This document shows, piece by piece, positions 21,073 through 55,637 of a DNA stretch of 63,365 nucleotides (the stretch's first letter is position 1; every line of letters begins with the position of its first letter). A program made the position numbers and the translations under genes. Source of the stretch: an uncultured Pseudomonadales bacterium (GTDB lineage Bacteria > Patescibacteriota > Microgenomatia > UBA1400 > MFAQ01). The stretch spans positions 1-63,365 of the forward strand of contig CAYTOI010000005.1 in the NCBI GenBank assembly GCA_964439805.1, read 5' to 3'. The notes under the pieces are model-generated. The model worked only from the letters and a program-made list of their open reading frames with translations. It was not told the DNA's origin and ran no database searches.

Positions 21073-21342
21073 TTATGGAAAGATTTGATCGCCTGCTTGG
21101 TTTTTGATAGCTATAGCAAGTATTGGGCAACAGCGGGCTGCTTCGAGAACCATATCTAAGGTATCACCATCCGGATTGCTTATTATCGCTTTACCATCTT
21201 CGGCGCGGATTTCAAAAACTCCTGGGGCAGCTATGGCACAAGGTCCGGCTGCAATACATTTATTTAGATCCACAATTATGGTGTGGCCGTCGGATCTTTT
21301 GCCGGTGGAAAAGTTTTCGTCGGTAGTTACATTTTGGTTCAT
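21073..21342 (-). CDS. Small single-cluster ferredoxin, [3Fe-4S]-type ligand pattern
   Basis: 89 aa. 'DLNKCIAAGPCAIAAPGVFEI' is a CxxAxxC pattern, with Ala where a 4Fe ferredoxin has its second Cys. The distal ligand region is 'ARCCPILAIAI'. ATGA-type overlap with the upstream GT2. Confidence 0.8.
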   Translation of the reverse strand: MNQNVTTDENFSTGKRSDGHTIIVDLNKCIAAGPCAIAAPGVFEIRAEDGKAIISNPDGDTLDMVLEAARCCPILAIAIKNQAGDQIFP

Positions 21343-22373: not shown

Positions 22374-22378
22374 GGAAG

Positions 22379-24434: not shown

Positions 24435-24435
24435 G

Positions 24436-25503
24436 TTAGCCGACGAAGATGCCGCGAACGAAGAAGCTTAAGTTTATAAAAAGCAAGAAGTAAGAAGTGA
24501 GGTAATATAGCTTTTGGAAATAGGGATGCTGGCGCTCTAGCCAATCACCCAAGAAAAAGAAGATGGGGAAAACTACCAATAAGTATCTGGGCATACTGAC
24601 AAAGTCACCTGAAAGAGTGGGGACAAAAAAGGCGAGAAAGAAATAGACCCAATATGAAGGGCGAAGTTTTTTGTAGGTAATAAACAAGAGATAAATGGCA
24701 AATAAACTAATAATGCTTTCGGTCAAAACTATCATAAAAAGAGCCGTGTCGTGATCCATAAGAAGTAACATTTTCAGATAGCGGAAGATTACTTGATGTA
24801 GAAAAATAAATTTGTTTGGTAAAGAGTCATAAAATCTTTGAAGATTACTATCATTTATCTGCAAAAAATTTAAATAATAAAATGCGCCAACAGGTGGAAG
24901 CAAAAGGTAAAGGGTGTTGAGACTAAAGAAGTTTTTTAGATTTTCTTTGTTTTCTTGGTAGAACTCTACTAGCAATACTACCCAGAGAATTAAACCTGCT
25001 AGCCGAGTATAACTAGCGAGTGCAGCAGCCAAACCAGAGAATAAATATTGTTTTTTGCGAGACAGAAAAACTGAAGTAAGACAGAGAAATAGAAATAGGG
25101 ACTCTGAATAAGACGACACCAGATAAAAGGAGGCAGGAAAACAGAGAAGTAAAACCACAGCTCTTTTGACTGAGTCTTTTGGATAGTCTAACAAAGCTAG
25201 TTTTTGGAAGAGATACAAGCTAGCAAAAGCAAAAAGGTGGGATAGAAAAAGGCTAGAACCTAAGTAACCAATAGCTGGCGCAAAGAATTTTATGAGCGTA
25301 GGGTAAAGAGGAAAAAGTAGGTAACTGTAATATGTATTGGGAGTTCCGTAGCCCTCCTTGGCGATATCTATAAACTTGATTCCATCAAAATTACTAAAGA
25401 CACTGAAGCTCTTGGCCAAAGGTACTGAAAACAAAACAACTAAAAGTAGCAACACTCTCCAATTAATAAAACTAATTAAGAGAGAATTAAGAGTTTTTTT
25501 CAT
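24436..25503 (-). CDS. PIG-V/GT76-like GT-C mannosyltransferase-type membrane protein
   Basis: 355 aa polytopic protein. 'SNFDGIKFIDIAKEGYG...YSYLLFPLYPTLIKF' matches by eye the (W/F)D..Y..IA..GY ... FPLYP signature of the PIG-V family. Confidence 0.6.
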   Translation of the reverse strand: MKKTLNSLLISFINWRVLLLLVVLFSVPLAKSFSVFSNFDGIKFIDIAKEGYGTPNTYYSYLLFPLYPTLIKFFAPAIGYLGSSLFLSHLFAFASLYLFQKLALLDYPKDSVKRAVVLLLCFPASFYLVSSYSESLFLFLCLTSVFLSRKKQYLFSGLAAALASYTRLAGLILWVVLLVEFYQENKENLKNFFSLNTLYLLLPPVGAFYYLNFLQINDSNLQRFYDSLPNKFIFLHQVIFRYLKMLLLMDHDTALFMIVLTESIISLFAIYLLFITYKKLRPSYWVYFFLAFFVPTLSGDFVSMPRYLLVVFPIFFFLGDWLERQHPYFQKLYYLTSYFLLFINLSFFVRGIFVG

Positions 25504-26509
25504 TAATTTTTTTGTAAACCTCGTAAGTCAACTCAGCGGTTTTTTTCCAGGTAAAGAATTTACTTCTTTGCTTATTTATTTCAATATATTTTTCTTTGGC
25601 TGATCCTTTTAGAGCTATCACTTTTTTAATTGCCTTCTCCATAGACTTTAAACTTCGAGGGTTAAAAACAATAGTTTCTGGATGGTAAACTTCTGGAAGA
25701 CTAGATGTTTTTGAACTGGCAATGGGGCAGCCTGTGGTCATAGCTTCTAGAAGAGGTATACCAAAGCCCTCGTAGAATGAAGCCTGAACATAGGCGGTGG
25801 CTAGCCTGAGCATAATATTTAAATCTTCATTGGGAACTTTAGGTCGCAGGATGTGCTGATAGACCTCTAGCCTCACCATGTCTATTAGCTCTGGTGGCAC
25901 CGGCTTAATTATTTGCTGGTTCATTCCCCCACCAACAATAACCAAGGGGATATTCAATCTTTCGGTAACTTCTGCCAAACTAGGAAGATTTTTATTTGGA
26001 TTTGGTCCTCCAGCGACAGTTAAGATAAACTTGTCTGGTAAATTGTATTTTTTCTTGATGTCAGACTTTTGCTTTTCTGTGACATTTGATTTGTATAGCT
26101 CATTGACCGCCAACGGAGTGACAAAAATTTTCTCTTCTGGAAACCAAAGATATTTTTGGATGTCTTTTTTGGAATTTTCGGAATCGGTAATAACTGCCGA
26201 AACTTTTTTGAGACTGAGCCATTGTCGAAGTAAACCAAAACTAGTGAGAATTCCCTTTGGGTACCTATCGGCCATTACCAGTGGAGTGACGTCGTGAATG
26301 GTAACTATGGTTTTGCTATTTGGAACTACCTTGAGAGTAGGGTAAAAAAGATCGAAGTAGGGATAGTGGACTATATCTGCATTTTTTGAAACTAGAGAAA
26401 GTCCTTTGATTTTTTTGAGACTAGAAATCAGGTTTTCGGCATACACACCAATTCCCCTTCCGGTGGAGTGATTGTCTTGAATAAACTGAACTTTGAGAGG
26501 GTTTGCCAT
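25487..26509 (-). CDS. GT4 (group 1) glycosyltransferase
   Basis: 340 aa. 'YVQASFYEGFGIPLLEAMTTGCPIASS' is a canonical E-x7-E region. Confidence 0.85.
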   Translation of the reverse strand: MANPLKVQFIQDNHSTGRGIGVYAENLISSLKKIKGLSLVSKNADIVHYPYFDLFYPTLKVVPNSKTIVTIHDVTPLVMADRYPKGILTSFGLLRQWLSLKKVSAVITDSENSKKDIQKYLWFPEEKIFVTPLAVNELYKSNVTEKQKSDIKKKYNLPDKFILTVAGGPNPNKNLPSLAEVTERLNIPLVIVGGGMNQQIIKPVPPELIDMVRLEVYQHILRPKVPNEDLNIMLRLATAYVQASFYEGFGIPLLEAMTTGCPIASSKTSSLPEVYHPETIVFNPRSLKSMEKAIKKVIALKGSAKEKYIEINKQRSKFFTWKKTAELTYEVYKKINEKNS

Positions 26510-26533
26510 TCTTTGAAATTATATCTCTTTTTA

Positions 26534-27415
26534 CTACTTGAGAGCGAGGTCTTCCTTTTTGAGATTTTCCCAGAGTTTCATATAGGCAAAGGCGAAATGA
26601 AGACCTGAGTACAGAGAAAAGACAAAACCTGCGAATCCGTCCAGAAAGCCACGATAGCGGAAATATAATCGACAAAAAGTGGAGAGGGGCAAAAAGACCA
26701 GATACTTAAAAGAATTTAGAAAATTTATATTTACTCTATTGTATTGTAACTCTTTGGCGGTAAGGCTGGAGTAACGATCTTCTCTTAGCAAGTACCTGGC
26801 AAAATTGGGTGAGGCGAAGTGCTCTAGGTCTTCTCTTAACCAACCAGTGACTCCCTTTACTTCCATTTGCTCGTGAACACTAATGCAAGGCAGAAAAGCT
26901 TTGCCGTTTTTGAAAAGTCTTATTACTGGGTCTGGGTACTGACCAGTGTGCTTGAGGTATCTACCTAGGAAATAATTTTTTCTGGGTAGCCAATAGGCTT
27001 CGGCGGAACTGCTAAGTTTTTTTGGTTCGGGAAATATTTTTATTATTTTATTTATAGAGAGTTTAAGCGGTGAGATCCAGCTGGTGTAGCCGAAATATTT
27101 TCCCTCCAACAAACTAACTATTTCGTCTTTTTGTTCTGGACTTACTCTTTCGTCAGCATCTAACTGCAAAATCCAGTCGCTTTTGGCTGCGTCGTTTCCT
27201 ATTTGCTTTTGAACGTGGAAGATAGGGTTATTTTCTCTGAGGAGGACTTTGGCTCCGAATTTTTTGGCAATTTCTACAGTTTTGTCTATAGAATGGCCGT
27301 CAACTATAATTATTTCGTCTACCCAGCCTGATACTGATTCTAGGCAGTCTACCAAAACAGACTCTTCGTTGAAGGTGGCTAAGGTGACGGAAATTGTTTG
27401 GCGCTTATTTTGCAT
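26534..27415 (-). CDS. GT2 glycosyltransferase (WaaE/KdtX-like subgroup)
   Basis: 293 aa. Motifs: 'ISVTLATFNEESVLVDCLESV', 'IIIVDGHSIDKT', 'QLDADE', and the C-terminal amphipathic 'RGFLDGFAGFVFSLYSGLH'. Confidence 0.8.
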   Translation of the reverse strand: MQNKRQTISVTLATFNEESVLVDCLESVSGWVDEIIIVDGHSIDKTVEIAKKFGAKVLLRENNPIFHVQKQIGNDAAKSDWILQLDADERVSPEQKDEIVSLLEGKYFGYTSWISPLKLSINKIIKIFPEPKKLSSSAEAYWLPRKNYFLGRYLKHTGQYPDPVIRLFKNGKAFLPCISVHEQMEVKGVTGWLREDLEHFASPNFARYLLREDRYSSLTAKELQYNRVNINFLNSFKYLVFLPLSTFCRLYFRYRGFLDGFAGFVFSLYSGLHFAFAYMKLWENLKKEDLALK

Positions 27416-29036
27416 TTGTAGAAATGAATTTGTACATAATGTTTCCTGAAGGATCTTTGATGTTGTAGATTAACACATTATCGTCAACAGATTCGTCAGT
27501 AGAAACAATTAGAGTGTTGGGTGACTTTTTGTCTTCGCTGTAGTTAACTGATCTGAACTCATATTTTCCCATTTTTCTTACTGTACTAAAGCCAAACTTA
27601 TCTCTTGGAGTCATGACAAGTTCTTTTTGAAGTACCTCTGGAGGATATTGGAGGAAGAAGGCCATGAGGATATATGGCTGGTCGTAGCGATCTGAAATAA
27701 TTATTTTATCGTACTTATTGTAGTTTTCCTTTGTGTAGGCAGCAATTTGATCAAATCCGTATTGCCAGGCATAAGGCAGCTCTTTGGGGTAGTGAATGTA
27801 GTATTGATGTAGATACTGAAGCAAGGAAAAAGAACTCAAGAAAACTAGAACGCAAGACAGTAGGAGTTTAATAATTTTGTTAGTTTTAAGGTTTAGGAGT
27901 TCGGAGATGCCGAGAGCAGTAATTATACTAAGTGGAATGACCATGTTTTGGGCTCTGAGAGCGTGAGGGGACTGAAATGTCATCGCTGCCGCTACAGGAG
28001 AAACTAAAAACCAAAACAGGATAAACTTTTTCCATTTAAAGTCTAGCTTTAATAAATTGAATAGACCCAAGAAATAGAATGGAATCAAAAACAATAAGCT
28101 CTGGCCCATGCCCGGCACCTTACTACGTGCAATTTCATCACCACCTATAAATAAAAATCTTGGAGAAAAGTGCGATAAATAATTTCTTGTAAAGCGAAGT
28201 CCGTAGGAAAGATATTGATTGTGAATTAATCTCGTATAAAGACCGGCTGGGTGTTCGCGCCTTGCCTCTAGAGCTTGCCACAGTGGTCCAGAATCAGAAA
28301 ATACCGACACACCAGTAAAGCGGGACTGCCCTTCTTTGGAGAGCATTTGATAAGCGAGAGGAAGAGACGCAGCTACACCTATAAAAACAGCAGCCGCAAT
28401 TAGTGTGAAGTGCTTAGTTATTTGTGAGGATAAAGACTTCCAATAAAAAATTACTAGAGACAGGGAAACAAGTGGAGCGATAAGCCTAGATGAGTGATAA
28501 GTATAAAGACTTAATACCATACTAATGACAAAAAGGAAGAAGTACTTAGAATTTTCCAAACCTTTTAAAAATCCGTAAACTCCGAGAAGTATAAAAAATG
28601 TAGACACATTCACTTCCCAGCCACCGCGAGAAAATTGGAGATGCCAAGGTGAAGTGGCGAGTATGAAGGCAGAGATAATCGCGAGGTTGCTGTCAGATTT
28701 GGATTTTAACAACTTGTTAACAATTAAATAAACCAAATAGACGGAAATGGTGCCCAAGATAGCTGATGGAAGACGAACAGACCAGATGTTTAAACCGAGG
28801 AGCTTAACAAAAGGTAACACAATATAAAAGTAGACTGCTGGCTTGTAGTCGTCAAAACTTCTAAAGACCATGGGCCACCTTGTACCATGTTCATCCATAC
28901 CAGTTTTTATTAGAGACCAGGCGTTGTATCCTATGGCGGCCTCATCGGCATTTAAACCTGCTGGGTACCTGTCCAAGCTGACAATTCTAAGAACTGCTGC
29001 CAAAAAAATAATTAAAAAGATTAGGTATTTTCTCAT
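27405..29036 (-). CDS. Family-A GT-C membrane glycosyltransferase (ArnT/PMT_2-like)
   Basis: 543 aa. Motifs: 'LRIVSLDRYPAGLNADEAAIGYNAWSLIKTGMDEHG', central 'HFSPRFLFIGGDEIARS', C-terminal 'WQYGFDQIAAY'. Confidence 0.85.
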   Translation of the reverse strand: MRKYLIFLIIFLAAVLRIVSLDRYPAGLNADEAAIGYNAWSLIKTGMDEHGTRWPMVFRSFDDYKPAVYFYIVLPFVKLLGLNIWSVRLPSAILGTISVYLVYLIVNKLLKSKSDSNLAIISAFILATSPWHLQFSRGGWEVNVSTFFILLGVYGFLKGLENSKYFFLFVISMVLSLYTYHSSRLIAPLVSLSLVIFYWKSLSSQITKHFTLIAAAVFIGVAASLPLAYQMLSKEGQSRFTGVSVFSDSGPLWQALEARREHPAGLYTRLIHNQYLSYGLRFTRNYLSHFSPRFLFIGGDEIARSKVPGMGQSLLFLIPFYFLGLFNLLKLDFKWKKFILFWFLVSPVAAAMTFQSPHALRAQNMVIPLSIITALGISELLNLKTNKIIKLLLSCVLVFLSSFSLLQYLHQYYIHYPKELPYAWQYGFDQIAAYTKENYNKYDKIIISDRYDQPYILMAFFLQYPPEVLQKELVMTPRDKFGFSTVRKMGKYEFRSVNYSEDKKSPNTLIVSTDESVDDNVLIYNIKDPSGNIMYKFISTNAK

Positions 29037-30646
29037 TAAGGTTTGGTTTTGATGACTCTAAAAATAATTTTATGGTCTGGTGTTTCAATCTGTCTAAACA
29101 TGCTGACATTGTCTCCTGTAATGTCGTATTGATTATCAATATTACCTTCAGAGCCGACAAACATTGTGTCTTTCATTCTATTTAACTCGCTGACACCAAA
29201 TTGATGAAATTGAACATTCCCCACCAATCCCACCTTACCAACATCTAACCCGCCATCAATAAAGCTATTATTTTTTTGATAAGTAATTGGATCGTATTGG
29301 GTGTAAAAAAGATAGTAGATATAAGGTTGGCCTAAAACATCAGTAAACAAAACAGTTTCGGTTGGATTATCCTTGATGAGCTGAACTGCCTGCTTATAGC
29401 CATAATTAAATTCCTTGGCAAAAATAGTTTGAGAGTGATAAATATACAAATCAAAAATATAAATGGTACACAGTGTGTAAAGGATGGCGAATGGAACAAA
29501 AAATATCTTTGGAGCCCTAAGCAAGTAATATATGCCCAAGGCCGAGATAATTGCCCAAGGAAATGCCATAAAAAGCGATCTTAGTGGTGAGTATTCTGCC
29601 AACGTAAGAGAGGCAGGAATGGGTGAAATTAAGAGCATGCCTAAGACAAGAGTTTTTTGTTTTAAAGTCGCCTCTTTGGCCAAATACACAAGCCCAGCAA
29701 AAATGAATACAATCTCTATTGGATTTAATAAACCTAAACCTGGAAGATGTGCCCTTTCTGACACTGCAACACCTTCGTAAAACAAAACCTCGGGAGAAAA
29801 ATAATAACTATAGCGAGAAATAACTAATTGTGTTGTTAAAAGTTTTTGATTATGAAAGATTACGTTGTCAGCTACTATTTTTGGTTTGTAGTTGAAAATA
29901 CTAAGAGTTGAAAGTCTGTTCCCTGCTGAGCCAAACAAAGCCCCAATATATATCCAACAGCCAAAAAGTATAAAGGGCAATAAAAATATAATTCTTTTTG
30001 GATTTAAATATTGAACAAACTGGCTTAAAAAGTCTTTAAAATAAATAGCAAGTAAAAGCAAATAAACTAGAGGCACTAATAGCTTTGCACCTTGGTACAT
30101 TGCCAAAGAAACACAAGCCAAGAAAAGTGTTGGATATGCAGTGGACTTGCCTTTTACAAATCTGACGAAAAAATAGACACCAAAGAGCAAACAGCTTACA
30201 AAGACGTTTGTTTCCCAAGCACCATGACTGAAGTGAACCAACCAAGGAGAGACGGCAGTCATTAATGCAGCAATTTGTGCTAGAAGTTCAGGCTGGTCTG
30301 TTGTTTTTCTGGGAAAAAGCTCTTTAACTAGAAGATAAACTCCAAAAATGCTAAAGATTCCAAATAGCGCAGCGGGAAACCTGACTGCAAACTCATTTAA
30401 TCCAAATATTGCCACAGAAGGAACAGTTAAGTATATATACGCACCTGGTTTGTAATCCCCAAAGCTTTTAAAAATAACAGGTAAAAAAGCGCCATGCTCA
30501 TCTCTGCCTGTTTTGAGAATTGAGTAAGCGTTATAGCCTATGGCCGCTTCATCCCATGTTAAACCGTTTGGAACTGTTGAAAGTTGATAAAGCCTAAGAA
30601 AAGTGCCGATCGCTAAAGCCAAGATTAATAAAAAATATTTTTTCAT
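29036..30646 (-). CDS. Family-A GT-C membrane glycosyltransferase
   Basis: 536 aa. Motifs: 'LRLYQLSTVPNGLTWDEAAIGYNAYSILKTGRDEHG', central 'YFSPEVLFYEG', C-terminal 'FNYGYKQAVQL'. Its TAA shares 1 nt (TAATG) with the next gene's ATG. Confidence 0.85.
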   Translation of the reverse strand: MKKYFLLILALAIGTFLRLYQLSTVPNGLTWDEAAIGYNAYSILKTGRDEHGAFLPVIFKSFGDYKPGAYIYLTVPSVAIFGLNEFAVRFPAALFGIFSIFGVYLLVKELFPRKTTDQPELLAQIAALMTAVSPWLVHFSHGAWETNVFVSCLLFGVYFFVRFVKGKSTAYPTLFLACVSLAMYQGAKLLVPLVYLLLLAIYFKDFLSQFVQYLNPKRIIFLLPFILFGCWIYIGALFGSAGNRLSTLSIFNYKPKIVADNVIFHNQKLLTTQLVISRYSYYFSPEVLFYEGVAVSERAHLPGLGLLNPIEIVFIFAGLVYLAKEATLKQKTLVLGMLLISPIPASLTLAEYSPLRSLFMAFPWAIISALGIYYLLRAPKIFFVPFAILYTLCTIYIFDLYIYHSQTIFAKEFNYGYKQAVQLIKDNPTETVLFTDVLGQPYIYYLFYTQYDPITYQKNNSFIDGGLDVGKVGLVGNVQFHQFGVSELNRMKDTMFVGSEGNIDNQYDITGDNVSMFRQIETPDHKIIFRVIKTKP

Positions 30647-32418
30647 CTTATGGAAGTAATTATAAGGGCTGGAGATCCATCTAGATTACTTATTATTTTT
30701 TCAACCTTTGCGTTAGTGGGAATATGATCGGGTGAAGTTATCAACAGACTGTTTGCAGAAGGAATAATTGTTCCACTCTCTAGTTTGAAACTGCCAACCA
30801 AATCTCTAGAGATATTCCAATCATTTATAAAATAGACGTTATCAATTTTATCCGTCCAGAACCAGTCTGATTTTTTGAAACGAATGTTGCTAAGGTTAGG
30901 CTGCATCAGTTTTGGATCGAGTTTGGTGAAGAATGCGTAAAACATGTGCGGTTCAGCTAGCCTTTTGGTAACAAAAACATTTTGATAGTTTTGTCTGTTA
31001 TTTTTTATATATTCAACAGCCTCTTGATATCCAAACTGCCAAGATTGAGAGTATCCAGTAACATATGAGTTGAAATACATTCCAGAATAGCTTGCAAAAC
31101 ATATTCCAATTATTATTAGTATTGTTGGAATAAAAAATTTAAATTTTTGTATCTCTGATAATTTTAATATTGGTAAGGTGGCAAAGATAATAAGCACTGG
31201 TATCATGGGGTTTGGTCTAAGTGCCTGGGGCGGGTCAGCGGTAAGTGAGGCTGCTACAGGAGACAATAGTAGCCACAGAAAAACAAATTGGTAGTTTTTA
31301 TTTGAGATGTTTAGTAAAACAAAAACCAACCCGATAATCGCCAAAATGGTGACAGGAAGAGTCAGCATGTTTTGGCCAGGAATAGCAAACTGAGTCTGTG
31401 ACCCTGTTGATTGCCATAAAAATTGTGGAGAAAAATATTTTAAGTAATTACTTGCAACAGTTTTTGCAAAAAAAATCGGTCTGTTGTAAACAAATTTTGC
31501 GATTATAGGAGAAAGAGAACTTGCTGTTCTCATCTCCCCTATTTGGAAGACTGTGTTTTCTGTAAGAATTTGAAGTTTTCCATATCGGGCAGTGGCCTCT
31601 CCGGAAAAGATTTGGGAGGTGACTATGGTGATGGAAAGGATAAAAAAGATGAAGGAAAATATTGATATTATTCTGGATTGCCACAGCACTTTGTGCTTCG
31701 CAATGACAAACTTATTTTTTATTTCTTTTCTAAAAATTAATAGTGTGGCGAGGAGCATTAAAGGAACGAAAACTCTTGCTGTATTGTAAGTATGGAGAGA
31801 CAGACTGAGGAGAAGGGAGGAATATAGTAGTGCAGAGTGCGAGGTTTTTGGTGCTGAGTTTAAGTATTTAATAAGAAAGTAGAAGCCAAAAATAATAAAG
31901 GTAAGAGCGAGGTTGGCCTCTAAAGCGGGACGAGATACAAAAAAGTGCCAGGGGGAGATGGCGAGGAGAAAGGCTGCGAGTAACCCGAATTCGTCATTGC
32001 GAGGAGTAGTCGATGAAGCAATCCCCGACGCGGAGATCGCTTCAGCACTTTGTGATTCGTGATGACGACCGAATAACTTATTTGTTAGTAAATAAATACC
32101 TGGAATGGCTAATGTACCAGCCAAGGCAGAAATGAATCTAACGGCAAAAGCATTTAAACCAAAAATCCAAACTGGAATAGTTGTGAGGTAAATGTAAACA
32201 GGTAGCTTGTAATCCCCAAAAGCCTTAAAAATAAGTGGGAATCGAGCCCCCCATTCGTCCATTCCTGTCTTTAAAATTGCATAAGCATTGTAACCGTGAC
32301 TTACTTCATCCCAATTTAATGACGGCGGGAAAGTACCAAGTTGCCAGAATCTCAATACTCCTCCAAAAAAAACAATTAGAAATAGCAAAATATTTTTTTG
32401 TCTAGTATTTAAATTCAT
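30643..32418 (-). CDS. Family-A GT-C membrane glycosyltransferase carrying an in-frame insertion
   Basis: 591 aa. Motifs: 'LRFWQLGTFPPSLNWDEVSHGYNAYAILKTGMDEWG', central 'YFSPQFLWQS', C-terminal 'WQFGYQEAVEY'. An extra segment 'GRHHESQSAEAISASGIASSTTPRNDEFG' is absent from the paralogues. Confidence 0.85.
   Translation of the reverse strand: MNLNTRQKNILLFLIVFFGGVLRFWQLGTFPPSLNWDEVSHGYNAYAILKTGMDEWGARFPLIFKAFGDYKLPVYIYLTTIPVWIFGLNAFAVRFISALAGTLAIPGIYLLTNKLFGRHHESQSAEAISASGIASSTTPRNDEFGLLAAFLLAISPWHFFVSRPALEANLALTFIIFGFYFLIKYLNSAPKTSHSALLYSSLLLSLSLHTYNTARVFVPLMLLATLLIFRKEIKNKFVIAKHKVLWQSRIISIFSFIFFILSITIVTSQIFSGEATARYGKLQILTENTVFQIGEMRTASSLSPIIAKFVYNRPIFFAKTVASNYLKYFSPQFLWQSTGSQTQFAIPGQNMLTLPVTILAIIGLVFVLLNISNKNYQFVFLWLLLSPVAASLTADPPQALRPNPMIPVLIIFATLPILKLSEIQKFKFFIPTILIIIGICFASYSGMYFNSYVTGYSQSWQFGYQEAVEYIKNNRQNYQNVFVTKRLAEPHMFYAFFTKLDPKLMQPNLSNIRFKKSDWFWTDKIDNVYFINDWNISRDLVGSFKLESGTIIPSANSLLITSPDHIPTNAKVEKIISNLDGSPALIITSIR
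31991..32068. repeat. 78-nt GC-rich palindromic element embedded in frame in the GT-C gene
   Basis: 7-bp terminal inverted repeats: TCGTCAT (31991..31997) and ATGACGA (32062..32068). There is an internal imperfect hairpin GAAGCAATC...GATCGCTTC (about 32015..32041) and an ATTGC...GCAAT pair. The stretch is visibly more GC-rich than its flanks. Confidence 0.55.
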
Positions 32419-34099
32419 AAAAAAGTGGCTCGCCTGAATGTAGTTTTATTATGTCACTATTTTTGGCAACCGACTTGAACTCTGTATTGAGATACTCAAG
32501 CATGGTTAAATAGTAAACTGCATTTTCTAGCTGATCTGGTCTTTTGTTTCTGTAATCTATTAATGATGCTATGTATAAATTTGTATCTCCAAAACGAATT
32601 CCATCTAAATCATTTTTTCCATCTGTGTTACTAAAAGCTGTTCCAGACTTTACAAAAGACTGAAATTTTTTTGGATCGAATTTGTTGTAATATGCATAGA
32701 AAATTAATGGATATTCATTTTTTGGAGATATTACCACTGGCTGACCACTATACGTGCCGGCCTTTAGAGCTAATTCTTTCATCCCTGAGCTCCATGATTT
32801 TTCTGAATCGTATCTATAGTGAAAAATGTAGTCATGTCCAAAAAACAAAGATTCAATGATTAGTGAAAATAAGAATATATAGAATATCAATCTATAGTTT
32901 TTGAATATATAAGAGAAGCCTACTGAAGAAGTCAATATTAATGGAAGTAAAAACATAAATGACCTACTTGCGTGAGCAAACCCCTCTCTCGTTATTGCAG
33001 AAGTTGATATTGATACAACTGAAAATATAATCAACAAAAACAAAAACTTATCTTTTTTGTTCCTGATCAAATAGTAAATACCAAAGAATAATAATGGTAA
33101 GAAATTTCTATAGATCATCCCCCAGTTTTGAACCGAGTGTCGAAGATTTGGATCCCCATTTGTAAAAAGGAAATCTGTAGAAATCAGACCAAAGAAGTTA
33201 TCTAATAATTTTTTAAAGTAAAATACTGGCTTATTGTGAAATATTTTTGAATAAATGGAGGTTGTAGCGCCGACAACTAAATTTGGCCCCAAGTCTTGTA
33301 CTCTTTGGTAGTTAACCTCAGACCCGGCAACCGGATCAGTGAAAATTGAGATGTAGTTGAACCTTGAAGCAGTGCCTCCATTGATAAACATTAAAATTAC
33401 AGGGATAAACAAAAATATAGAAAACAATTTCGCATATGAATTTTGAATTAAATGCTTAAATGAGTTCGGGAAAAATAACAAAAGAATTGGGTAAAAAATA
33501 ATAGCCATCTTGGCGGTGTTGTAAACCATGGGAGTTAACCCCAAAACAATAAAGGAGGTTAAAAGATAAAAGTTTTTTTCTTTGATTAAATATTCTGTAA
33601 ATAAATAAAGCCCTGAGACCACAAAAAAGTAAAGTAAGGCTAGTGAAAAACCAATTCTAGAATATGTTAAGTGCCAAGGAACAATAGCTACTAGAAAGGC
33701 AGATATATAACCCAAATAAGGCAAATCTAAGTCAAAGATTTTTCTTGATTTTAAATTTTCTACAAAAAGATAAGTCATTAAAATTCCAAGCGTGCCAAAA
33801 ACTGCTGGTACAAGGCGAATGGCAAGATCTAGATTTATTCCTAAAAAACTGGCCAAGGCTATCAGATAAATAGGTATTGGGGGTTGGACATCACTAAATG
33901 AGTGGAACTGTATTGGAAAGCAAATTCCAGAGTAATCACAGCCAGTTTTGAGAAGTGAGTATGCTTGATAACCCATATCTACCTCGTCAGAAAAAAGACT
34001 TATGGGCAGCTTTAATAAACCTACCAATCGGAGACTGCCCCCTAAAATTAAAATTACTAGCAATGGCCAGTATTTTTTTAATGCAACTTTGATGTCCAT
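32402..34099 (-). CDS. Family-A GT-C membrane glycosyltransferase
   Basis: 565 aa. Motifs: 'LRLVGLLKLPISLFSDEVDMGYQAYSLLKTGCDYSG', central 'ISTDFLFTNGDPNLRHS', C-terminal 'WSSGMKELALK'. Confidence 0.8.
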   Translation of the reverse strand: MDIKVALKKYWPLLVILILGGSLRLVGLLKLPISLFSDEVDMGYQAYSLLKTGCDYSGICFPIQFHSFSDVQPPIPIYLIALASFLGINLDLAIRLVPAVFGTLGILMTYLFVENLKSRKIFDLDLPYLGYISAFLVAIVPWHLTYSRIGFSLALLYFFVVSGLYLFTEYLIKEKNFYLLTSFIVLGLTPMVYNTAKMAIIFYPILLLFFPNSFKHLIQNSYAKLFSIFLFIPVILMFINGGTASRFNYISIFTDPVAGSEVNYQRVQDLGPNLVVGATTSIYSKIFHNKPVFYFKKLLDNFFGLISTDFLFTNGDPNLRHSVQNWGMIYRNFLPLLFFGIYYLIRNKKDKFLFLLIIFSVVSISTSAITREGFAHASRSFMFLLPLILTSSVGFSYIFKNYRLIFYIFLFSLIIESLFFGHDYIFHYRYDSEKSWSSGMKELALKAGTYSGQPVVISPKNEYPLIFYAYYNKFDPKKFQSFVKSGTAFSNTDGKNDLDGIRFGDTNLYIASLIDYRNKRPDQLENAVYYLTMLEYLNTEFKSVAKNSDIIKLHSGEPLFYEFKY

Positions 34100-34117
34100 A
34101 TATAAATTATATTCTAA

Positions 34118-35707
34118 CTATTTAAGGTTAGTTTTTGTTATTCGATATGCTGGAGATCCATCTGGATAATTAATTTGTTTTATTAAGGTCAAGTTATTGT
34201 CTTTAATTTGCTGGAGAGATATCGCAAGGCTGTCTCCTATTAGGTATTGTTCAATTTTTTTATCTTCTGTCCAGTTAATCCCCCTTGTTGTTAGCCTGCC
34301 AATAATCTTGGTAGTATTTCTTCCCATGTAAGTATAGTAATTTTCATTACTAACTTCAAAATTATTTTTTTGATATTGAACAGGATCAGCATTTAAATAC
34401 ACCAATAGCTGGCTGTATGGTTCAGCTCTGGCATTGTCCACGACGATTGGTAACTGAGGGTTAAATTCATTTTTAATTACATCGGCCACTTGTTGCCAGC
34501 CATAATCCCAGTAAGGAGCTCTGTAGTACTCATTTAATAAATAGCCAGAACTATACAGTTTAAGAATAGAATATGTGAGCAACAATACAATTACGACAGT
34601 TTGAATTTTGAAAGAAATTTTTTTTAGTAACACTATAGCTGAAAGTGCACATATGATTACGTAGGGAATAACTAAAGGTAGTGAGCGAATAGTAGAGAAT
34701 GGATCTCTGGTTAAGGATGCTGGGATAGGGGCAATGATCAAAAACAATATAATAAATTGCTTTAAGTTGGATGAAATTTTTTTGGTAAACAATAAGTACA
34801 ATCCATGAATGTAAAGGGGAAGTTGCCATAAGTAAAAAACAGACAAACCAGGAAAAGAACTTCTTGGACCTGCATCGCCTAGCCAAAATAATTGTCGAGG
34901 TGAAAAATAAGACAGGTAAAGCGATGGCCATTCTTTTACCCCCCAGCTGTTAACCCCCGAAAAAATTCCTAAAGTGGAAACTCTGGCTAAAAATCCTGGA
35001 GTATTAATTATTCTTAGTGTTGGCAGGGTAATAATAAAACCAATTAGAACACTTAATACTGAGTAGAAGAGATATTTTGAAGAAAAAAGGATTTTGAAAT
35101 ATTTAACTAATAAATACAACAAAATAAGTGGAACCAAAATTCTCTCAGAGTGATAAGCGGGTAAGGCTATGGCAAAGAAAATGCCAGAAAAGATCAGCAC
35201 TGCGGGCTTTTGCAAGGAAACCTGGAAAAGATATATCCCTAAAAGTAGAAGGAACAGAGCCACGTTACATTCGAAATTTGTTCTTCCAAATAATATGTGC
35301 CATGGTGAAATTGACAGGAACAGTGTCGAAAGTAAGGCTAAATTTTTTGAATCCTTTGAGTTATCAGATAATTTTAAAATTAAAAAGTACAAAAGTGGTA
35401 ATGTCAAAATACTAAAGAAAAATGAGGGGAAACGAATTGTAAAAGTATTTAAGCCAAATATTGGAATGATGGGAGCAATTAGGTAAACATATATTGGTGT
35501 CTTAAAGTCGTTAAATGATCGAAATGCGGCTGGAAAAGGCATGCCGAACTCATCCTTGCCTGTTTTGAGTATGGAATAGGCGCTAAACCCTTGTCCTGCT
35601 TCATCCAAATACAAACCTGCTGGAGCCAATCCTAACTTATAAAATCTAACAACAAACCCAAGGATTACTACTAGCAACAAACTTACCGCATAAAAGTATT
35701 TATTCAT
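34118..35707 (-). CDS. Family-A GT-C membrane glycosyltransferase
   Basis: 529 aa. Motifs: 'VRFYKLGLAPAGLYLDEAGQGFSAYSILKTGKDEFG', central 'YFSPRQLFWLGDAGPRS', C-terminal 'WDYGWQQVADV'. Its closest paralogue is 36283..37953. Confidence 0.85.
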   Translation of the reverse strand: MNKYFYAVSLLLVVILGFVVRFYKLGLAPAGLYLDEAGQGFSAYSILKTGKDEFGMPFPAAFRSFNDFKTPIYVYLIAPIIPIFGLNTFTIRFPSFFFSILTLPLLYFLILKLSDNSKDSKNLALLSTLFLSISPWHILFGRTNFECNVALFLLLLGIYLFQVSLQKPAVLIFSGIFFAIALPAYHSERILVPLILLYLLVKYFKILFSSKYLFYSVLSVLIGFIITLPTLRIINTPGFLARVSTLGIFSGVNSWGVKEWPSLYLSYFSPRQLFWLGDAGPRSSFPGLSVFYLWQLPLYIHGLYLLFTKKISSNLKQFIILFLIIAPIPASLTRDPFSTIRSLPLVIPYVIICALSAIVLLKKISFKIQTVVIVLLLTYSILKLYSSGYLLNEYYRAPYWDYGWQQVADVIKNEFNPQLPIVVDNARAEPYSQLLVYLNADPVQYQKNNFEVSNENYYTYMGRNTTKIIGRLTTRGINWTEDKKIEQYLIGDSLAISLQQIKDNNLTLIKQINYPDGSPAYRITKTNLK

Positions 35708-36286
35708 TTAAAAAAATAATCTTAGTTCGTAAAAAATCTCAAATAAAATAAGTAAAAAAAACAGAATTGTAAGTTTTTTTTGAGAGTTGAACATTTCTAT
35801 TAATCCTAAATATATTGCGACAAAAAAGAATGGCCATAATAAAAAATCTAGCATATGATGGTTGGCAAAAAACGAAAGCATGACAATGGCTAACAAAAAT
35901 AGATAAGCAATAATATTTTTGTATTTTCCTTTAAACTTAAAAATAAAAAACAACAGTGGAAGTATGACAAGCAAAGGTAACCTGATGTAATTTTGGCCAT
36001 TTACCACTTCCCTGGGATGAGAACCAAAAAAGTAATAGTTTGGGTCTAGAAAATCAAAAAGATTATCAAAATACTTATTTGAGATTATTACAAGCTTGTT
36101 TTGAAAAAATCTTGCTAAAGGAATATTGGGGTAAATGTTAATGTTTCGAAGTACCAGCTGCCTCGCTTGGTAATCTGATTCAAATATACTTTTTATGTCT
36201 GTAGCTGAACCTATATTTTGTGCACCAAAGTTTGATATCCAAATAGACAAAGACAAAATGGTTACAACCATGATTAATTTCTTCAT
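35708..36286 (-). CDS. Small membrane protein resembling the central loop plus following helices of family-A GT-C proteins
   Basis: 192 aa. Layout: N-terminal anchor, loop 'LARFFQNKLVIISNKYFDNLFDFLDPNYYFFGSHPREVVNGQNY', then 3-4 TM segments. It is paralogous to 39274..40089. It abuts both neighbours (0-nt gap and 4-nt overlap). Confidence 0.5.
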   Translation of the reverse strand: MKKLIMVVTILSLSIWISNFGAQNIGSATDIKSIFESDYQARQLVLRNINIYPNIPLARFFQNKLVIISNKYFDNLFDFLDPNYYFFGSHPREVVNGQNYIRLPLLVILPLLFFIFKFKGKYKNIIAYLFLLAIVMLSFFANHHMLDFLLWPFFFVAIYLGLIEMFNSQKKLTILFFLLILFEIFYELRLFF

Positions 36287-37953
36287 TGGCTAGGATTTGT
36301 TTTGAGGATTCTTAATGCTATTTCTTTGTTTGGATATAGAATATCGATAATTTTTGTAATGTTATGTTCCAATATCTGCTGATCTGAGATAGCCCTTGAA
36401 TCTACAATTAAATATTTTTCAACTCTATCTGTGTCGACCCCCCAGACAAAATTTTTGACAGTAACTCTTCCAATTTTTTTGGTTTCATTTCTTGAAATAT
36501 TACTGTAGTAATCAGAACTGGATACCTCAAAGTTTTCATTTTGGTATTTTTCTGGATCGAATTTTGAGAAAAAAAGCAATTCTATATATGGATGTCCCCT
36601 GACACTATCTACCAGTATAGGTATGTTAGGATTTAGCTTGTCTATTTCCTCAACCGCATCTTGCCAACCGTAACTCCAAAACTCTGAACGATAATAGTCG
36701 TGATGATAAAAAATTGAGACATACATTTTGCCTAGTGAGTAAAATACTATTAGAGTTAAAACCAATAACTTTACGTAAGACGAAATTGATACCAAATCCC
36801 ACGACTTTATTATTCCGTAGGAAACAATGATTGTAAACGGAATTACCATTGGAAGGGACCTAAGAGTGGAATACGGGTCTCTAGTTAAGCTCGCAGGTAT
36901 GGGAGAGGCCAAAAGCAGAGTAAGAATTAAGGGCTTTAGTTTTTTTTGATCTGAGCTTTTTAAGAGGAAATAAAGACCGACAAGATAAAACGGAAATTGC
37001 CAAACAAATAAGGACCCTAGGTCTGGAAATGGTTTTCTCGGGCCTGCGTCACCAAGTGAAAAAATGAATCTTGGTGAAAAGTAAGATGAGTAAAGTGACG
37101 AGAATTCTCTGATGGTAAGAATTGTGCGATTGTTTGAAATGCTCGCCAATGGACTGTTGCCATTTACTTTGCCCCATGGAAATTCATGAACGTTAGATAA
37201 AATGCTTAATGCTGATGTTCTAGCCTTAAATCCTGGAGTTTGAATTATTTTTAGAGTTGGAAAAATAATTATGATTCCTATAACAAAACTTAAGATAGCA
37301 GGTAAGAAAAATTGTTTTTTATATTCTAAAAACTTTTTAAAATTTAAGACAATAAACATTGTTAACAATACAGGGACCAAAAATAATTCAGCACGATACG
37401 CCAAGGCAGAAAGGGATAGAGTAACGGCTGACAATAGCAAGAACCAAGCCTTTTTGAGGGAACTATAGAGCAAAAGTAAGCCTAAAAGGAGAAGAAAAAG
37501 GGCGATATTTGCCTCGTATGCAGTTCTGCTATAGAGAATATGCCAAGGAGAAATGGCAAGGAGTGTGGCAGAAAATGGGGCTAGGTATTTATTGTTAGGC
37601 TCGGGGGAAAGGTTTTTGACCAAGAAAAACAAGAGTGGAATTGTTAACATTCCAAAAATAGCAGATGGAAGACGAACAGAAAAAGGTGTTATGCCTAAAA
37701 AGTATACAAATGGAACCGTAATGTATGTATAGACAGGACTTTGAAAAGTGGAAAAAGATCTGAACATAACTGGAAAACTTTTTCCGAATTCATCCTTGCC
37801 TGTTTTGAGTATGGAATAGGCGTTATAACCAATTGAAGCTTCGTCTATATAGAACCCCTTAGGTACTTCTCCAAGCTTGTAAAATCTTATAAAAATTCCA
37901 ACAGCAATAATTGCAATTAAGATGATGCCGGCAATTTTTTTATAATTGATCAT
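36283..37953 (-). CDS. Family-A GT-C membrane glycosyltransferase
   Basis: 556 aa. Motifs: 'IRFYKLGEVPKGFYIDEASIGYNAYSILKTGKDEFG', central 'YFSPRFIFSLGDAGPRK', C-terminal 'WSYGWQDAVEE'. Confidence 0.85.
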   Translation of the reverse strand: MINYKKIAGIILIAIIAVGIFIRFYKLGEVPKGFYIDEASIGYNAYSILKTGKDEFGKSFPVMFRSFSTFQSPVYTYITVPFVYFLGITPFSVRLPSAIFGMLTIPLLFFLVKNLSPEPNNKYLAPFSATLLAISPWHILYSRTAYEANIALFLLLLGLLLLYSSLKKAWFLLLSAVTLSLSALAYRAELFLVPVLLTMFIVLNFKKFLEYKKQFFLPAILSFVIGIIIIFPTLKIIQTPGFKARTSALSILSNVHEFPWGKVNGNSPLASISNNRTILTIREFSSLYSSYFSPRFIFSLGDAGPRKPFPDLGSLFVWQFPFYLVGLYFLLKSSDQKKLKPLILTLLLASPIPASLTRDPYSTLRSLPMVIPFTIIVSYGIIKSWDLVSISSYVKLLVLTLIVFYSLGKMYVSIFYHHDYYRSEFWSYGWQDAVEEIDKLNPNIPILVDSVRGHPYIELLFFSKFDPEKYQNENFEVSSSDYYSNISRNETKKIGRVTVKNFVWGVDTDRVEKYLIVDSRAISDQQILEHNITKIIDILYPNKEIALRILKTNPSQ

Positions 37954-39266
37954 TATCGTCTAATAACTCCTAAAGGACCTGATGTGTATACAAATTTTTC
38001 ATTTGCTTTTGATGTCAAGGAAATACTGAATAGGTGCCCTTCTGGTCCGGAGAAAGGCTCGTGCTTAAAATACTTAAAAATATATTGATACCCTGTATTT
38101 TCGCCTAGAGGAAGATCATAAGAAACATTGAACACTGGAAACTCTTTTTGGTTTACTATGTAACTAACTACATTAAGTTTGTCTCTTAACCGGACAAATG
38201 GTTTATCGTTAAGTACAATAATGAACTGTGAATATACCAACAATCCTATAACCGGAATAATAATCCATATAGTAAGTTTGTCGACAAATAATTTTGCTAA
38301 AAATAACGGTATTAAAGCATTTGCCATACCATAGTAATACTCAGGAATATTACCCTTGTACTGAGAAAGCGCCAACATGGGTAATAGTATCCAAAGTGAA
38401 GTAAGAATTTTTGATTGAAAATCTTTTTGCTTATAGATTGCGTAACAAAAGGCTATAAGAATAATAATTTTTTCCTGCACATAACCACTCAGAACAAGTG
38501 ATCTCCAAAAAGTTTGCATAAAATACCAAGTTGGGTATGTTCTATCTGCAGACTGACCACCTATAAATATTAATAATTTGTTGAGATTTAAAAATTGATG
38601 TCTAAGATCAAAAATCGCTATTGGAGTAAAGAACAGAGCCAAGACAATTAAACCCCAAAGCAATTGCCTGACTGTTGCTTTCTTTTTTGTAAGTAATTGA
38701 GTTAGGGCGACATAGCCCATGATTGGAGCGGTAACCAGATGGAATGAAGCAGCAAAGCCTGCAAAGGCCGACGCATGTATAAAAAGTTTATTTGATTTTA
38801 GTAGCTGATGGCACAAATAATAACCAATTAGACTAAAAGGAGTAATAAACATGGCATTCCAAGAAACAATAGAAACTGAACTGGCCGTAATAATTGCAGC
38901 GAGAATGGCAACCCTTTTATCGTATAATTTCTCACCTATAAAATATGTGAGCAAAGGAACAATTCCACCTATCAAAACCGAAGCAATGGCTCCTGCAGCT
39001 GGGTGACCACCCACGGCAAGAAAAAGAGGTAGTAAAAAATAATAGAAGTAAGGACCTGTAAAAAAACCATTATCGTTTGCAACTCTTGGACCAATTAGCA
39101 CAGGCTTCTTGTCCCAAACCATGCTCATAACATTCATAGCATCATTAGACTGATCCCATTCGAAAGTATACCTATCATTGATTCTGATCGCTTTAATGCA
39201 GATAGAAAAAGCTACTATAAAAGTGAGCAGAATTATTTTTGTCCAATTTGGACGAAGTTTGGCCAT
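37953..39266 (-). CDS. Family-B polytopic GT-C-like membrane protein
   Basis: 437 aa. First loop: 'FEWDQSNDAMNVMSMVWDKKPVLIGPRVANDNGFFTGPYFYYF'. It shares a D(Q/E)xxD ... (I/L)(V/I)GP ... G(P)xxYY pattern with 43282..44826 and 50375..51919. TAATG overlap with the next gene. Confidence 0.6.
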   Translation of the reverse strand: MAKLRPNWTKIILLTFIVAFSICIKAIRINDRYTFEWDQSNDAMNVMSMVWDKKPVLIGPRVANDNGFFTGPYFYYFLLPLFLAVGGHPAAGAIASVLIGGIVPLLTYFIGEKLYDKRVAILAAIITASSVSIVSWNAMFITPFSLIGYYLCHQLLKSNKLFIHASAFAGFAASFHLVTAPIMGYVALTQLLTKKKATVRQLLWGLIVLALFFTPIAIFDLRHQFLNLNKLLIFIGGQSADRTYPTWYFMQTFWRSLVLSGYVQEKIIILIAFCYAIYKQKDFQSKILTSLWILLPMLALSQYKGNIPEYYYGMANALIPLFLAKLFVDKLTIWIIIPVIGLLVYSQFIIVLNDKPFVRLRDKLNVVSYIVNQKEFPVFNVSYDLPLGENTGYQYIFKYFKHEPFSGPEGHLFSISLTSKANEKFVYTSGPLGVIRR

Positions 39267-39273
39267 ATATTAA

Positions 39274-40089
39274 CTATATTATAGTCACCCTGATTAACTC
39301 TGTAAGACTAATTAAGATATAAATTACCATAAAAATATTAGATAAATAGTTATTGTTTGTACTTATCCTTTTGAGACCATAAAAGCAGACAAGTGAAACG
39401 GGAACGAAAAGTAGTGACTCATATTTATCTTGATTGTTTATTAAGGCTAGAGAAAGCATTGAAGAAAGAATAGTGGATAATAACCATTTTCTGTGGATGT
39501 TTTTATTTAAGTAATAAATTCCAAAAATAAATAACATTATTGTTAAGTAGGAAAACTTAATTAAGTTTTGACCTGAACCCAACTCTTGTGGATGAAAGGC
39601 AAAAAAATAATTATTTAAATCCAAAGATTCAAAGATATTTGACTTGAATTTTTCCAATGGAACTGTAAATCGATTTTCATAAACTCTTGCTAGATTCCTG
39701 TTTGGTATTAAGGATATTTTTTTTATTAAGGTGTCCTTTGCAAGTGGGTCTGGAGTAAAAATTGAATAAGCATAGAATGACTTAAATGTAAACAAGAATA
39801 ACAGCGTTAAAATTCCCGCATAAGCAACTAAGGCTTTGATAGGGACCTCTTTGATATAAAAAATAATTAAAATAACCGGGACAAACAAAAAAACAGGATG
39901 GAAGAGAGGCAAAATCAAATAAAGAAAATAATGATACTGAATTTTTTTGGTATACAAAACCCAGTTCAATACTATTACGAGAGTAGAAGTAATAAAAAGT
40001 AACCAAACTTGGCGATTTGCTAAATAAAACGAGATCGGCCAAAAAACAAAAATTAAAAATGCTGATACTCCAAATAATAATTTATTCAT
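39274..40089 (-). CDS. Small polytopic membrane protein, paralogue of 35708..36286
   Basis: 271 aa. The loop 'LARVYENRFTVPLEKFKSNIFESLDLNNYFFAFHPQELGSGQNL' aligns by eye with the 192-aa protein and with the family-A central loop. It is the first gene of the long minus-strand block. Confidence 0.5.
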   Translation of the reverse strand: MNKLLFGVSAFLIFVFWPISFYLANRQVWLLFITSTLVIVLNWVLYTKKIQYHYFLYLILPLFHPVFLFVPVILIIFYIKEVPIKALVAYAGILTLLFLFTFKSFYAYSIFTPDPLAKDTLIKKISLIPNRNLARVYENRFTVPLEKFKSNIFESLDLNNYFFAFHPQELGSGQNLIKFSYLTIMLFIFGIYYLNKNIHRKWLLSTILSSMLSLALINNQDKYESLLFVPVSLVCFYGLKRISTNNNYLSNIFMVIYILISLTELIRVTII

Positions 40090-53799: not shown

Positions 53800-53800
53800 A

Positions 53801-55629: not shown

Positions 55630-55637
55630 GTGAGTTA

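Follow-up and report, generated by a model that had tools for sequence, protein, structure and literature searches.

An ancient, order-conserved array of six GT-C class A glycosyltransferase genes in Microgenomates: candidates for stepwise assembly of a surface glycan

A 63,365-nucleotide (nt) stretch of DNA (contig CAYTOI010000005.1 of assembly GCA_964439805.1, recorded as an uncultured Pseudomonadales bacterium; hereafter the window) carries on its minus strand an array of six homologous genes, which we call family A and name by their left coordinates. We found that each of the six forms its own clade with orthologues that keep their place in other genomes, and that the motif corresponding to the GT-C class A catalytic site is intact. 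Structural modeling places the family in this fold class. On balance, we favor the reading that the six are non-redundant, anciently duplicated extracytoplasmic GT-C enzymes with distinct acceptor or linkage specificities, which would build a surface glycan step by step. In transcription order, the array consists of the following open reading frames (ORFs; lengths in amino acids, aa):

36283 to 37953, minus strand: family-A GT-C class A glycosyltransferase, 556 aa; first of the six, weak PMT_2 match
35708 to 36286, minus strand: membrane protein, 192 aa, between 34118 and 36283
34118 to 35707, minus strand: family-A GT-C, 529 aa, 46% identical to 36283
32402 to 34099, minus strand: family-A GT-C, 565 aa, most divergent of the six
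30643 to 32418, minus strand: family-A GT-C, 591 aa; 20-30 aa are inserted in the loop that follows helix 3
29036 to 30646, minus strand: family-A GT-C, 536 aa
27405 to 29036, minus strand: family-A GT-C, 543 aa; last of the six and the member that was modeled

The six ORFs lie exactly where an earlier note on this DNA had placed them, and all-versus-all BLASTP shows them to be mutually homologous, with full-length pairwise identities of 24-34% (E 1e-21 to 1e-71) and 46% for 34118/36283. The note had also described them as an unbroken series, which the 192-aa ORF inside the array rules out. This ORF shares a 4-nt overlap with 36283 and abuts 34118 with 0 nt between them, so the 0-nt gap thought to join two family-A genes is really the junction of the small ORF with 34118. 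The five junction sizes themselves had been given correctly: in addition to the 0-nt one, they comprise an 18-nt gap (34118 to 32402), a 17-nt overlap (32402 to 30643), a 4-nt ATGA overlap (30643 to 29036) and a 1-nt TAATG overlap (29036 to 27405). The last gene of the array overlaps a GT2 gene at 26534-27415 by 11 nt.

The fold assignment comes from an AlphaFold2 model of the 27405 protein, for which 59 homologues were used (predicted local distance difference test score, pLDDT, 91.8; predicted template modeling score, pTM, 0.91). When this model was compared with the PDB using Foldseek, each of the 44 top matches was a GT-C enzyme or a complex containing one (E 4e-7 to 4e-2). Template modeling (TM) scores were 0.51-0.53 for ArnT, about 0.5 for STT3/PglB/AglB, 0.50-0.55 for ALG9/ALG12 and 0.45-0.48 for Pmt4; Pmt1/2, Emb and Aft were matched as well, and identity to the matched structures is about 12%. 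Judged by this model, the six are enzymes of the GT-C class A fold. Twelve residues are invariant in the 59-sequence alignment (27405 numbering): R17, D31, E32, R88, P130, W131, Y180, P188, R239, T353, R361 and P454. D31 and E32 are constant in all six orthogroups and in the model sit at the N-terminus of a helix (residues 30-45) in the first outside loop. The catalytic base of GT-C class A enzymes is an Asp or Glu on the first helix of the first extracytoplasmic loop (PMC13503287); D31/E32 occupy just this position, and thus the catalytic motif is intact. Both N-terminal signatures picked out in the earlier note, the one with DE and 'TG.DE.G', were found, and D31/E32 hold in all 59 members. 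Its two other signatures are present only approximately: 'FSP.FLF..GD' lacks GD in 29036 and 30643, and G427 is the one universal residue of 'W.YG...A'.

Loops rich in and free of K/R alternate along the sequence in a pattern consistent with 7+4 helices, an inside N-terminus and an outside position of loops 1 and 4 and of the tail. The predicted layout of about 11 helices comprises a conserved seven-helix module, the outside loop 4 (residues 233-313, about 80 aa, bearing the FSPxFLF motif), a variable four-helix module and an outside C-terminal domain (residues 411-543). The extracytoplasmic location proposed earlier for the tail is therefore what both the positive-inside pattern and the GT-C class A architecture predict.

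Matches to established families are weak throughout. In Pfam, PMT_2 matches all six members at E 1e-6 to 1e-10, the 36283 match (20.7 bits) falling below the 26.1-bit cut-off, whereas PF02366 (PMT) exceeds its cut-off only for 27405 (28.6 bits) and for 41665, a further paralogue on the plus strand. NCBIfam gave only sub-threshold matches (Agl23, ArnT and LA_3751), the ArnT equivalog NF009784 scoring 16-18 bits against a cut-off of 567. A sequence-profile search of the PDB returned a single match, ArnT 5EZM, at E 0.012 over 87 residues. Marginal or sub-threshold as they are, neither the PDB profile nor the NCBIfam matches support a family assignment. Orthologues are publicly annotated as 'glycosyltransferase family 39 protein' or 'ArnT-like'. 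Family A is therefore a distinct ArnT/PMT-related family of GT-C class A, not strictly GT39 or GT83.

ArnT (GT83; 5EZM/5F15) is both the best structural match (E 4e-7; TM score 0.51-0.53) and the sole PDB sequence-profile match. Like family A, it has a multi-helix GT-C class A core, an acidic catalytic residue in the first outside loop and an extracytoplasmic domain at the C-terminus. However, identity is 12%, and ArnT is encoded by a single gene, acts on lipid A and is not known from arrays of 6-10 paralogues. ArnT is an undecaprenyl-phosphate-L-Ara4N:lipid A transferase with 13 helices, against about 11 predicted in family A, and Gram-positive-type candidate-phyla bacteria are not expected to make lipid A. 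Pfam and NCBIfam scans of the window found no arnA/B/D/E/F-type genes; the context is one of GT2, GT4, MOP and other GT-C genes.

The resemblance to PMTs (GT39; Pmt1-Pmt2, 6P25) raises another explanation, namely that the six are protein O-glycosyltransferases, each moving a sugar from polyprenyl-phosphate to Ser/Thr of different secreted or surface proteins such as S-layer proteins, pilins or lipoproteins. The PMT_2 and PF02366 matches, the loop-1 DE motif shared with PMTs, the appearance of Pmt4 and Pmt1/2 among the structural matches and the paralogue-specific outside domains all agree with this idea. So does the GT2 encoded at 26534-27415, whose best solved relatives are the protein/peptide-glycosylating GmaR and SunS, although they are matched over its N-terminal part of about 100 aa only. 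On the other hand, no member has a MIR or PMT_4TMC match (Pfam, E<=0.01) and loop 4 is merely about 80 aa long; lacking MIR, these are not true PMTs. Structural matches to PMTs span about 263-279 columns of the N-terminal part, and ArnT, STT3 and ALG9/12 match as well or better, which leaves the PMT analogy drawn in the earlier note weak. In addition, a conserved flippase and several Leloir transferases are encoded nearby, as is typical of glycan assembly, and the order-conserved one-to-one orthology of five to seven enzymes described below is easier to explain by steps of a pathway. We therefore consider protein O-glycosylation unlikely.

The evidence that the six are distinct, retained enzymes comes from orthology. 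Eleven related loci were compared (designated by L numbers); a scan of genome contigs gave six loci, and the statistics draw on 4-9 genomes per orthogroup. Among the loci considered, L004, L005 and L012 stem from wastewater and groundwater data sets. For 27405, over 100 orthologue clusters were found (57-80% identity), the named ones belonging to Candidatus Collierbacteria, Woesebacteria and other Microgenomates. Each paralogue has one orthologue per genome at 49-78% identity, while the second-best match is at about 30%. By gene, orthologue identities are 54-68% for 36283 (7 loci), 49-65% for 32402, 53-73% for 29036 and 51-61% for 30643, the Woesebacteria locus L002 included. In a neighbor-joining tree the sequences fall into six clean clades with long stems, those of 34118 and 36283 being sisters. 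One-to-one orthologues together with clean, long-stemmed clades imply that the duplications are old and that every copy has been retained. Thus, the duplication followed by specialization envisaged in the earlier note agrees with what we found, each paralogue forming its own clade with syntenic orthologues in 4-9 other genomes.

Gene order is kept in eight other genomes: a 41665-like GT-C, a 271-aa ORF, 36283, the module of the 192-aa ORF and 34118, 32402, 30643, 29036 and 27405, followed by GT2, GT4, a 355-aa membrane protein, a MOP flippase, two GT2 genes, ferredoxin and radical SAM. The trio 30643-29036-27405 is the most widely conserved part and occurs in all loci covering that end of the array, L002 included. 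Upstream members vary between lineages: the module of 34118 and its small ORF is present only in the window, L006, L007, L009 and L012 and absent from L001, L004, L008 and L010, and in L002 both 32402 and 36283 are replaced by non-orthologous members.

Selection was measured as the ratio of non-synonymous to synonymous substitution rates (dN/dS) against the 97% identical strain L012. For the other orthologues, at 50-78% protein identity, synonymous sites would be saturated, and amino-acid distance ratios were used instead. All genes are under purifying selection (dN/dS 0.09-0.25; 0.25 for 36283 and 0.10 for 34118). The separate estimates for core and tail that the earlier note had called for are both low and reveal no acceleration in the tail: with four family members pooled, the tail gave 0.078 and the core 0.159, a difference that is not significant at these small counts (p=0.26). 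In the same comparison (32402, 34118, 36283 and 41665 against L012), the four-helix variable module had a dN/dS of 0.58, versus 0.08-0.11 for the N-terminal core and tail; this value reflects 12 non-synonymous and 6 synonymous changes, counts too small to interpret.

These data bear on the idea that the array is a diversity-generating pool of partly redundant copies with fast turnover, driven by phages or host recognition, as in gtr O-antigen loci. Consistent with such a pool, the upstream part of the array is lineage-variable and one of its modules has been duplicated or lost. An extra 437-aa GT-C gene is inserted between the 271-aa ORF and 36283 in the window strain and in L012, but is not found at that position in L001, L004 or L006-L010. 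Moreover, the distant locus L011 (CAZDED010000002.1) holds five non-orthologous family-A members. Against it stand the six well-separated, long-stemmed orthogroups whose order is kept, and the low dN/dS that extends to the tails; nor did repeats, mobile-element genes or signs of phase variation stand out in the Pfam results of the run. We regard this explanation as improbable, more so than protein O-glycosylation.

Mean identity among the six paralogues is 33% in the helical core, 28% in loop 4 and 23% in the C-terminal domain (133 aa), and universally conserved columns concentrate in the first 90 residues. The ratio of tail to core distance is 0.63-0.99 within each of the six orthogroups and 1.37 between orthogroups; likewise, it is 0.83 among 51 orthologues of 27405 and 1.30 among the six window paralogues. 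In other words, the tail does not outpace the core in its divergence as long as one orthogroup is considered, but does so between paralogues. Positions fixed within but different between orthogroups make up 17% of tail and 10% of core columns (odds ratio 1.8, p=0.04). The sequence comparisons thus indicate that, when the paralogues separated, divergence moved to the outside parts, genuinely but to a moderate degree, and that strong constraint followed. Divergence of the tail between paralogues with later constraint is a signature of specialization, not of relaxed selection. The contrast between a conserved core and a divergent tail drawn in the earlier note therefore stands in part: the tail is the more divergent (23% versus 33%), but 'diverge strongly' overstates the case, and the proteins do not combine a conserved half with unrelated tails. 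In profile-profile comparisons, five of the six tails are homologous throughout, aligning over 116-135 columns with probabilities of 95-100%; that of 32402 is recognizable only in its first 50 or so residues, similarity being gone in the last 80 or so. When the C-terminal domain was modeled in isolation (pLDDT 82.8), Foldseek found nothing in the PDB better than E 0.18 or a TM score of 0.35, and a carbohydrate-binding module assignment considered for the domain was dropped.

The 192-aa ORF that interrupts the array has a relative at the start of the minus-strand run:

39274 to 40089, minus strand: small membrane protein, 271 aa, first gene of the run, 38% identical to the 192-aa ORF

A profile of these small ORFs aligns to family-A residues 230-404, that is, to loop 4 plus the four-helix variable module (hhalign probability 95.6%, E 1.2e-8, 167 columns). 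The small proteins have an N-terminal helix of their own, and have neither the catalytic N-terminal module nor the C-terminal domain. Their orthologues are 50-61% identical (53-61% for the 192-aa ORF in L006, L007 and L009), and dN/dS against L012 is 0.20-0.25 (0.25 for the 192-aa ORF). A hidden Markov model search recovered 502 clusters at 50% identity, of which the best 150 are all 117-306 aa long; the family has no Pfam domain and no name beyond 'hypothetical protein'. With such conservation, about 500 clusters and dN/dS of 0.2-0.25, the possibility that these ORFs are decaying gene fragments was rejected. In every locus examined, two more distant ones included, the small gene immediately precedes a PMT_2-type GT-C gene, and in one of the distant loci the pair stands away from any long array. 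In other genomes the 271-aa ORF directly precedes the 36283 orthologue; it seems that this two-gene unit of the 271-aa ORF and 36283 was duplicated in tandem to give that of the 192-aa ORF and 34118. Further members were seen at L001:2564-3286, L002:426-1112 and 4462-5004, L014:1385-2152 and L015:6001-6609.

Judging from homology and gene position, the small proteins are probably membrane partners of the GT-C encoded immediately downstream, the 192-aa gene being the best candidate for a partner subunit within the array. A parallel may be GPI mannosyltransferase I (Gpi14-Pbn1/PIG-M-PIG-X), a GT-C that needs a small membrane partner, co-encoded or co-assembled (PMC12653191). The small ORF of the window is likewise tied to a GT-C, always immediately upstream of it, but unlike that partner it is a paralogue of the enzyme's own variable module. 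Taken further, the sequence relationships would allow a Microgenomates assembly line of 6-10 GT-Cs resembling ALG and Emb enzymes, some of them split or heterodimeric with a separately encoded variable module. We put this forward tentatively, as a long shot; if true, it would be a GT-C subunit architecture not described before, making a major envelope glycan.

A related proposal is that the whole array encodes one obligate hetero-oligomer, neighbors pairing in fixed ratios like Pmt1-Pmt2 or EmbA-EmbB. Dimeric GT-Cs (Pmt1-Pmt2, the Pmt4 homodimer, EmbA-EmbB) are indeed among the structural neighbors, stop and start codons overlap throughout with almost no Shine-Dalgarno sites, the 17-nt overlap of 32402 and 30643 is conserved in six loci, and the trio 30643-29036-27405 co-occurs in all loci covering its end. 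Genes from 40089 to 21339 form an uninterrupted minus-strand run of 15 with gaps of at most 24 nt, and a Shine-Dalgarno-like sequence lies within 22 nt of the start in just 2 of them. Translation must begin without such sites or by coupling, and the small gaps make reinitiation at overlapping stop/start codons likely. However, tight junctions are usual for all kinds of genes in the window: 35 of 40 same-strand junctions are at most 25 nt, 21 are overlaps and the median is -1. Translational coupling is thus plausible, but as a genome-wide habit rather than a trait of the array. The stoichiometric co-expression that the earlier note derived from tight coupling finds little support here, as junctions this common carry little information on stoichiometry, and tightness as a sign of a special complex was rejected. 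Besides, membership of the array is lineage-variable (the missing 34118 module and the replacements in L002), and two paralogues, one degenerate and one intact, are encoded on the opposite strand. An obligate machine of this kind therefore seems doubtful.

Returning to the stepwise reading, the remainder of the run encodes enzymes that could supply such a pathway:

26534 to 27415, minus strand: GT2 Leloir-type glycosyltransferase, 293 aa (PF00535)
25487 to 26509, minus strand: GT4 (Pfam)
24436 to 25503, minus strand: multi-transmembrane protein, 355 aa (Pfam scan of the downstream block)
23163 to 24434, minus strand: MOP/Wzx-type flippase (PF01943, at cut-off)
22379 to 23173, minus strand: GT2 resembling polyprenyl-phosphate sugar synthases, 264 aa (Pfam, NCBIfam and PDB sequence search)
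21339 to 22373, minus strand: GT2 (Pfam)

Orthologues of the first GT2 are 64-85% identical and always found at that position, and the order of the block 21339-26509 is kept in L001, L002, L004, L007 and L008. All six PDB sequence matches of the candidate synthase 22379-23173 are GtrB or ArnC (E 2e-5 to 2e-4), and the MOP gene overlaps its gene by 11 nt. In the pathway that we envisage, cytoplasmic GT2 and GT4 enzymes of the operon would build a lipid-linked primer, the GtrB/ArnC/PpgS-like GT2 would load single sugars onto polyprenyl phosphate, and the MOP-type transporter would flip lipid-linked material to the outside of the membrane. There, each family-A enzyme might take a sugar from a polyprenyl-phosphate donor and attach it at its own acceptor position, or by its own linkage, to a growing surface glycan or glycoconjugate. 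The choice of acceptor would depend for the most part on loop 4, the variable module and the C-terminal domain, which differ between paralogues and are constant within an orthogroup. The logic would be that of the ALG3/9/12 steps in the lumen of the endoplasmic reticulum and of the mycobacterial Emb/Aft enzymes.

Several observations weigh against this reading. Domain-specific divergence is moderate, with p=0.04 for specificity-type positions, and although divergence is non-uniform between paralogues (ratio 1.37), as the earlier note had expected, it is uniform in the youngest pair, 34118/36283, whose core and tail alike are 45.8% identical. The C-terminal domain matches no solved domain, and hence a role in acceptor binding is suggested by analogy only. 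The best NCBIfam matches of the candidate synthase, PpgS and ArnC, are below cut-off, the former far below it (52 versus 370 bits), and no membrane helix is predicted in the protein. Pfam and NCBIfam scans found neither a priming phosphoglycosyl transferase nor a GtrA-type flippase in the window. Finally, sigma-70 promoter and intrinsic terminator scans were at chance (61 versus 58.8 and 16 versus 14.1 expected from shuffled sequence), and we thus infer one long operon from 21339 to 40089 from gene spacing alone.

Known systems offer several parallels for stepwise assembly. ALG3/9/12 enzymes (GT58/GT22) arose by duplication and contact their acceptors mainly through the variable module (PMC13503287). 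Like the layout predicted for family A, ALG9 and ALG12 have a seven-helix module, four helices and a C-terminal lumenal domain (PMC13503287), and ALG3, ALG9 and ALG12 act one after another, each of these paralogues having its own acceptor specificity, for which the variable module is chiefly responsible. Unlike family A, clustered in an operon, they are eukaryotic, encoded by dispersed genes and have a defined donor and acceptor; identity is about 12%. Emb/Aft enzymes are also GT-C paralogues that use a polyprenyl-phosphate sugar outside the membrane and, according to PDB titles, form homo- or heterodimers. The embC-embA-embB genes lie in tandem, head to tail. Nevertheless, Emb proteins are twice as long and come in three copies versus six to ten. 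Their C-terminal outside domains, like those of Aft, are carbohydrate-binding modules that bind the acceptor (PMC11127046), whereas the family-A domain matches no such module, and no AcpM-type partner is known for family A. Three-component systems (GtrA/GtrB/Gtr*, CsbB/GtcA/YfhO and GT136) combine a polyprenyl-phosphate sugar synthase and a flippase with a GT-C, a scheme to which the GtrB/ArnC/PpgS-like GT2 next to the MOP transporter would correspond; those of GT136 use MATE/MOP-type flippases (PMC11127046). Each of them, however, has one GT-C and decorates a glycan made elsewhere, whereas the window has no GtrA and its synthase candidate is below cut-offs.

What is already known here is the generic annotation of the gene family and the existence of tandem GT-C paralogues in mycobacteria. 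In the literature searched, there was no description of a GT-C/GT39/COG1807 array of this size and conservation in candidate phyla or Patescibacteria, of an ALG9/12-like architecture with an unassignable C-terminal domain in such an array, or of stand-alone variable-module proteins paired with GT-C genes. One Microgenomates genome has been reported to contain 29 glycosyltransferase genes (PMC7143001). The 63-kb stretch, with at least 16 GT-C-like enzymes and a core conserved in Collierbacteria/Woesebacteria-type genomes, points to a complex envelope glycoconjugate largely assembled outside the membrane and under strong selection. Candidate-phyla bacteria of this kind depend on other cells or live attached to them, and their genomes measure about 1 Mb. 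Apart from this case, assembly outside the membrane is known in bacteria chiefly from the mycobacterial cell wall. Clean orthogroups with paralogue-specific outside domains amount to a natural experiment on how the variable modules and C-terminal domains of GT-Cs encode acceptor specificity, and the stand-alone variable-module proteins are a possible new type of GT-C partner.

Family A extends beyond the array, the window holding 9 intact copies and 1 degenerate copy by BLASTP and alignment. The additional members, and some of the other GT-C-like proteins, are:

243 to 2009, minus strand: intact family-A paralogue at the far end of the window (BLASTP, alignment)
1990 to 3651, minus strand: intact family-A paralogue at the far end of the window (BLASTP, alignment)
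41665 to 43281, plus strand: intact family-A paralogue, 538 aa, 27-33% identical to the six (PMT_2 E 1.7e-13; dN/dS 0.13)
40146 to 41678, plus strand: degenerate family-A paralogue, 510 aa (alignment, weak BLASTP matches; dN/dS 0.21 against L012)
37953 to 39266, minus strand: GT-C-like protein of a different family, 437 aa (PMT_2 match below cut-off)
48124 to 50382: YfhO-type GT-C-like protein
46557 to 48104 and 60063 to 61760: PTPS_related-type GT-C-like proteins

The degenerate copy has lost the catalytic Asp ('NIE' for 'DE'), the SPW motif and several other invariant residues, and has no Pfam match. Since its ORF is intact and under purifying selection despite the lost Asp, it may be a pseudo-enzyme. 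The entire window is 99% coding and, by Pfam and NCBIfam scans, essentially one glycan-biosynthesis island. Its GT-C-like polytopic proteins (at least 16) include PMT_2, YfhO and PTPS_related matches as well as unassigned ones, and it further holds about 11 GT2, three GT4, one epimerase, four methyltransferases, two MOP/Wzx-type transporters (23163-24434 and 58610-60073), a B12-binding radical-SAM enzyme (19414-21009) and a small ferredoxin. The last of these, an 89-aa ferredoxin-like ORF at 21073-21342, fills the only large 'gap' of the run, and together with the radical-SAM gene it follows closely on the glycosyltransferase block, an arrangement conserved in L001, L002 and L004; the pair suggests an unusual sugar modification.

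Two minor observations concern the records. L006 (CAZPFY010000034.1) and L008 (CAZGSP010000039.1) carry a syntenic Microgenomates-type cluster at 50-78% protein identity, and the gene content of L006, L008 and L011 indicates that the record taxonomy, 'uncultured Pseudomonadales' or 'Gammaproteobacteria', is probably wrong. In 44816-46508 and 52993-60073, adjacent ORFs overlap by 65-146 nt (for example, 52993-53946 / 53801-54832 / 54703-55629); these ORFs are listed from the first possible start codon, and their true starts probably lie further downstream.

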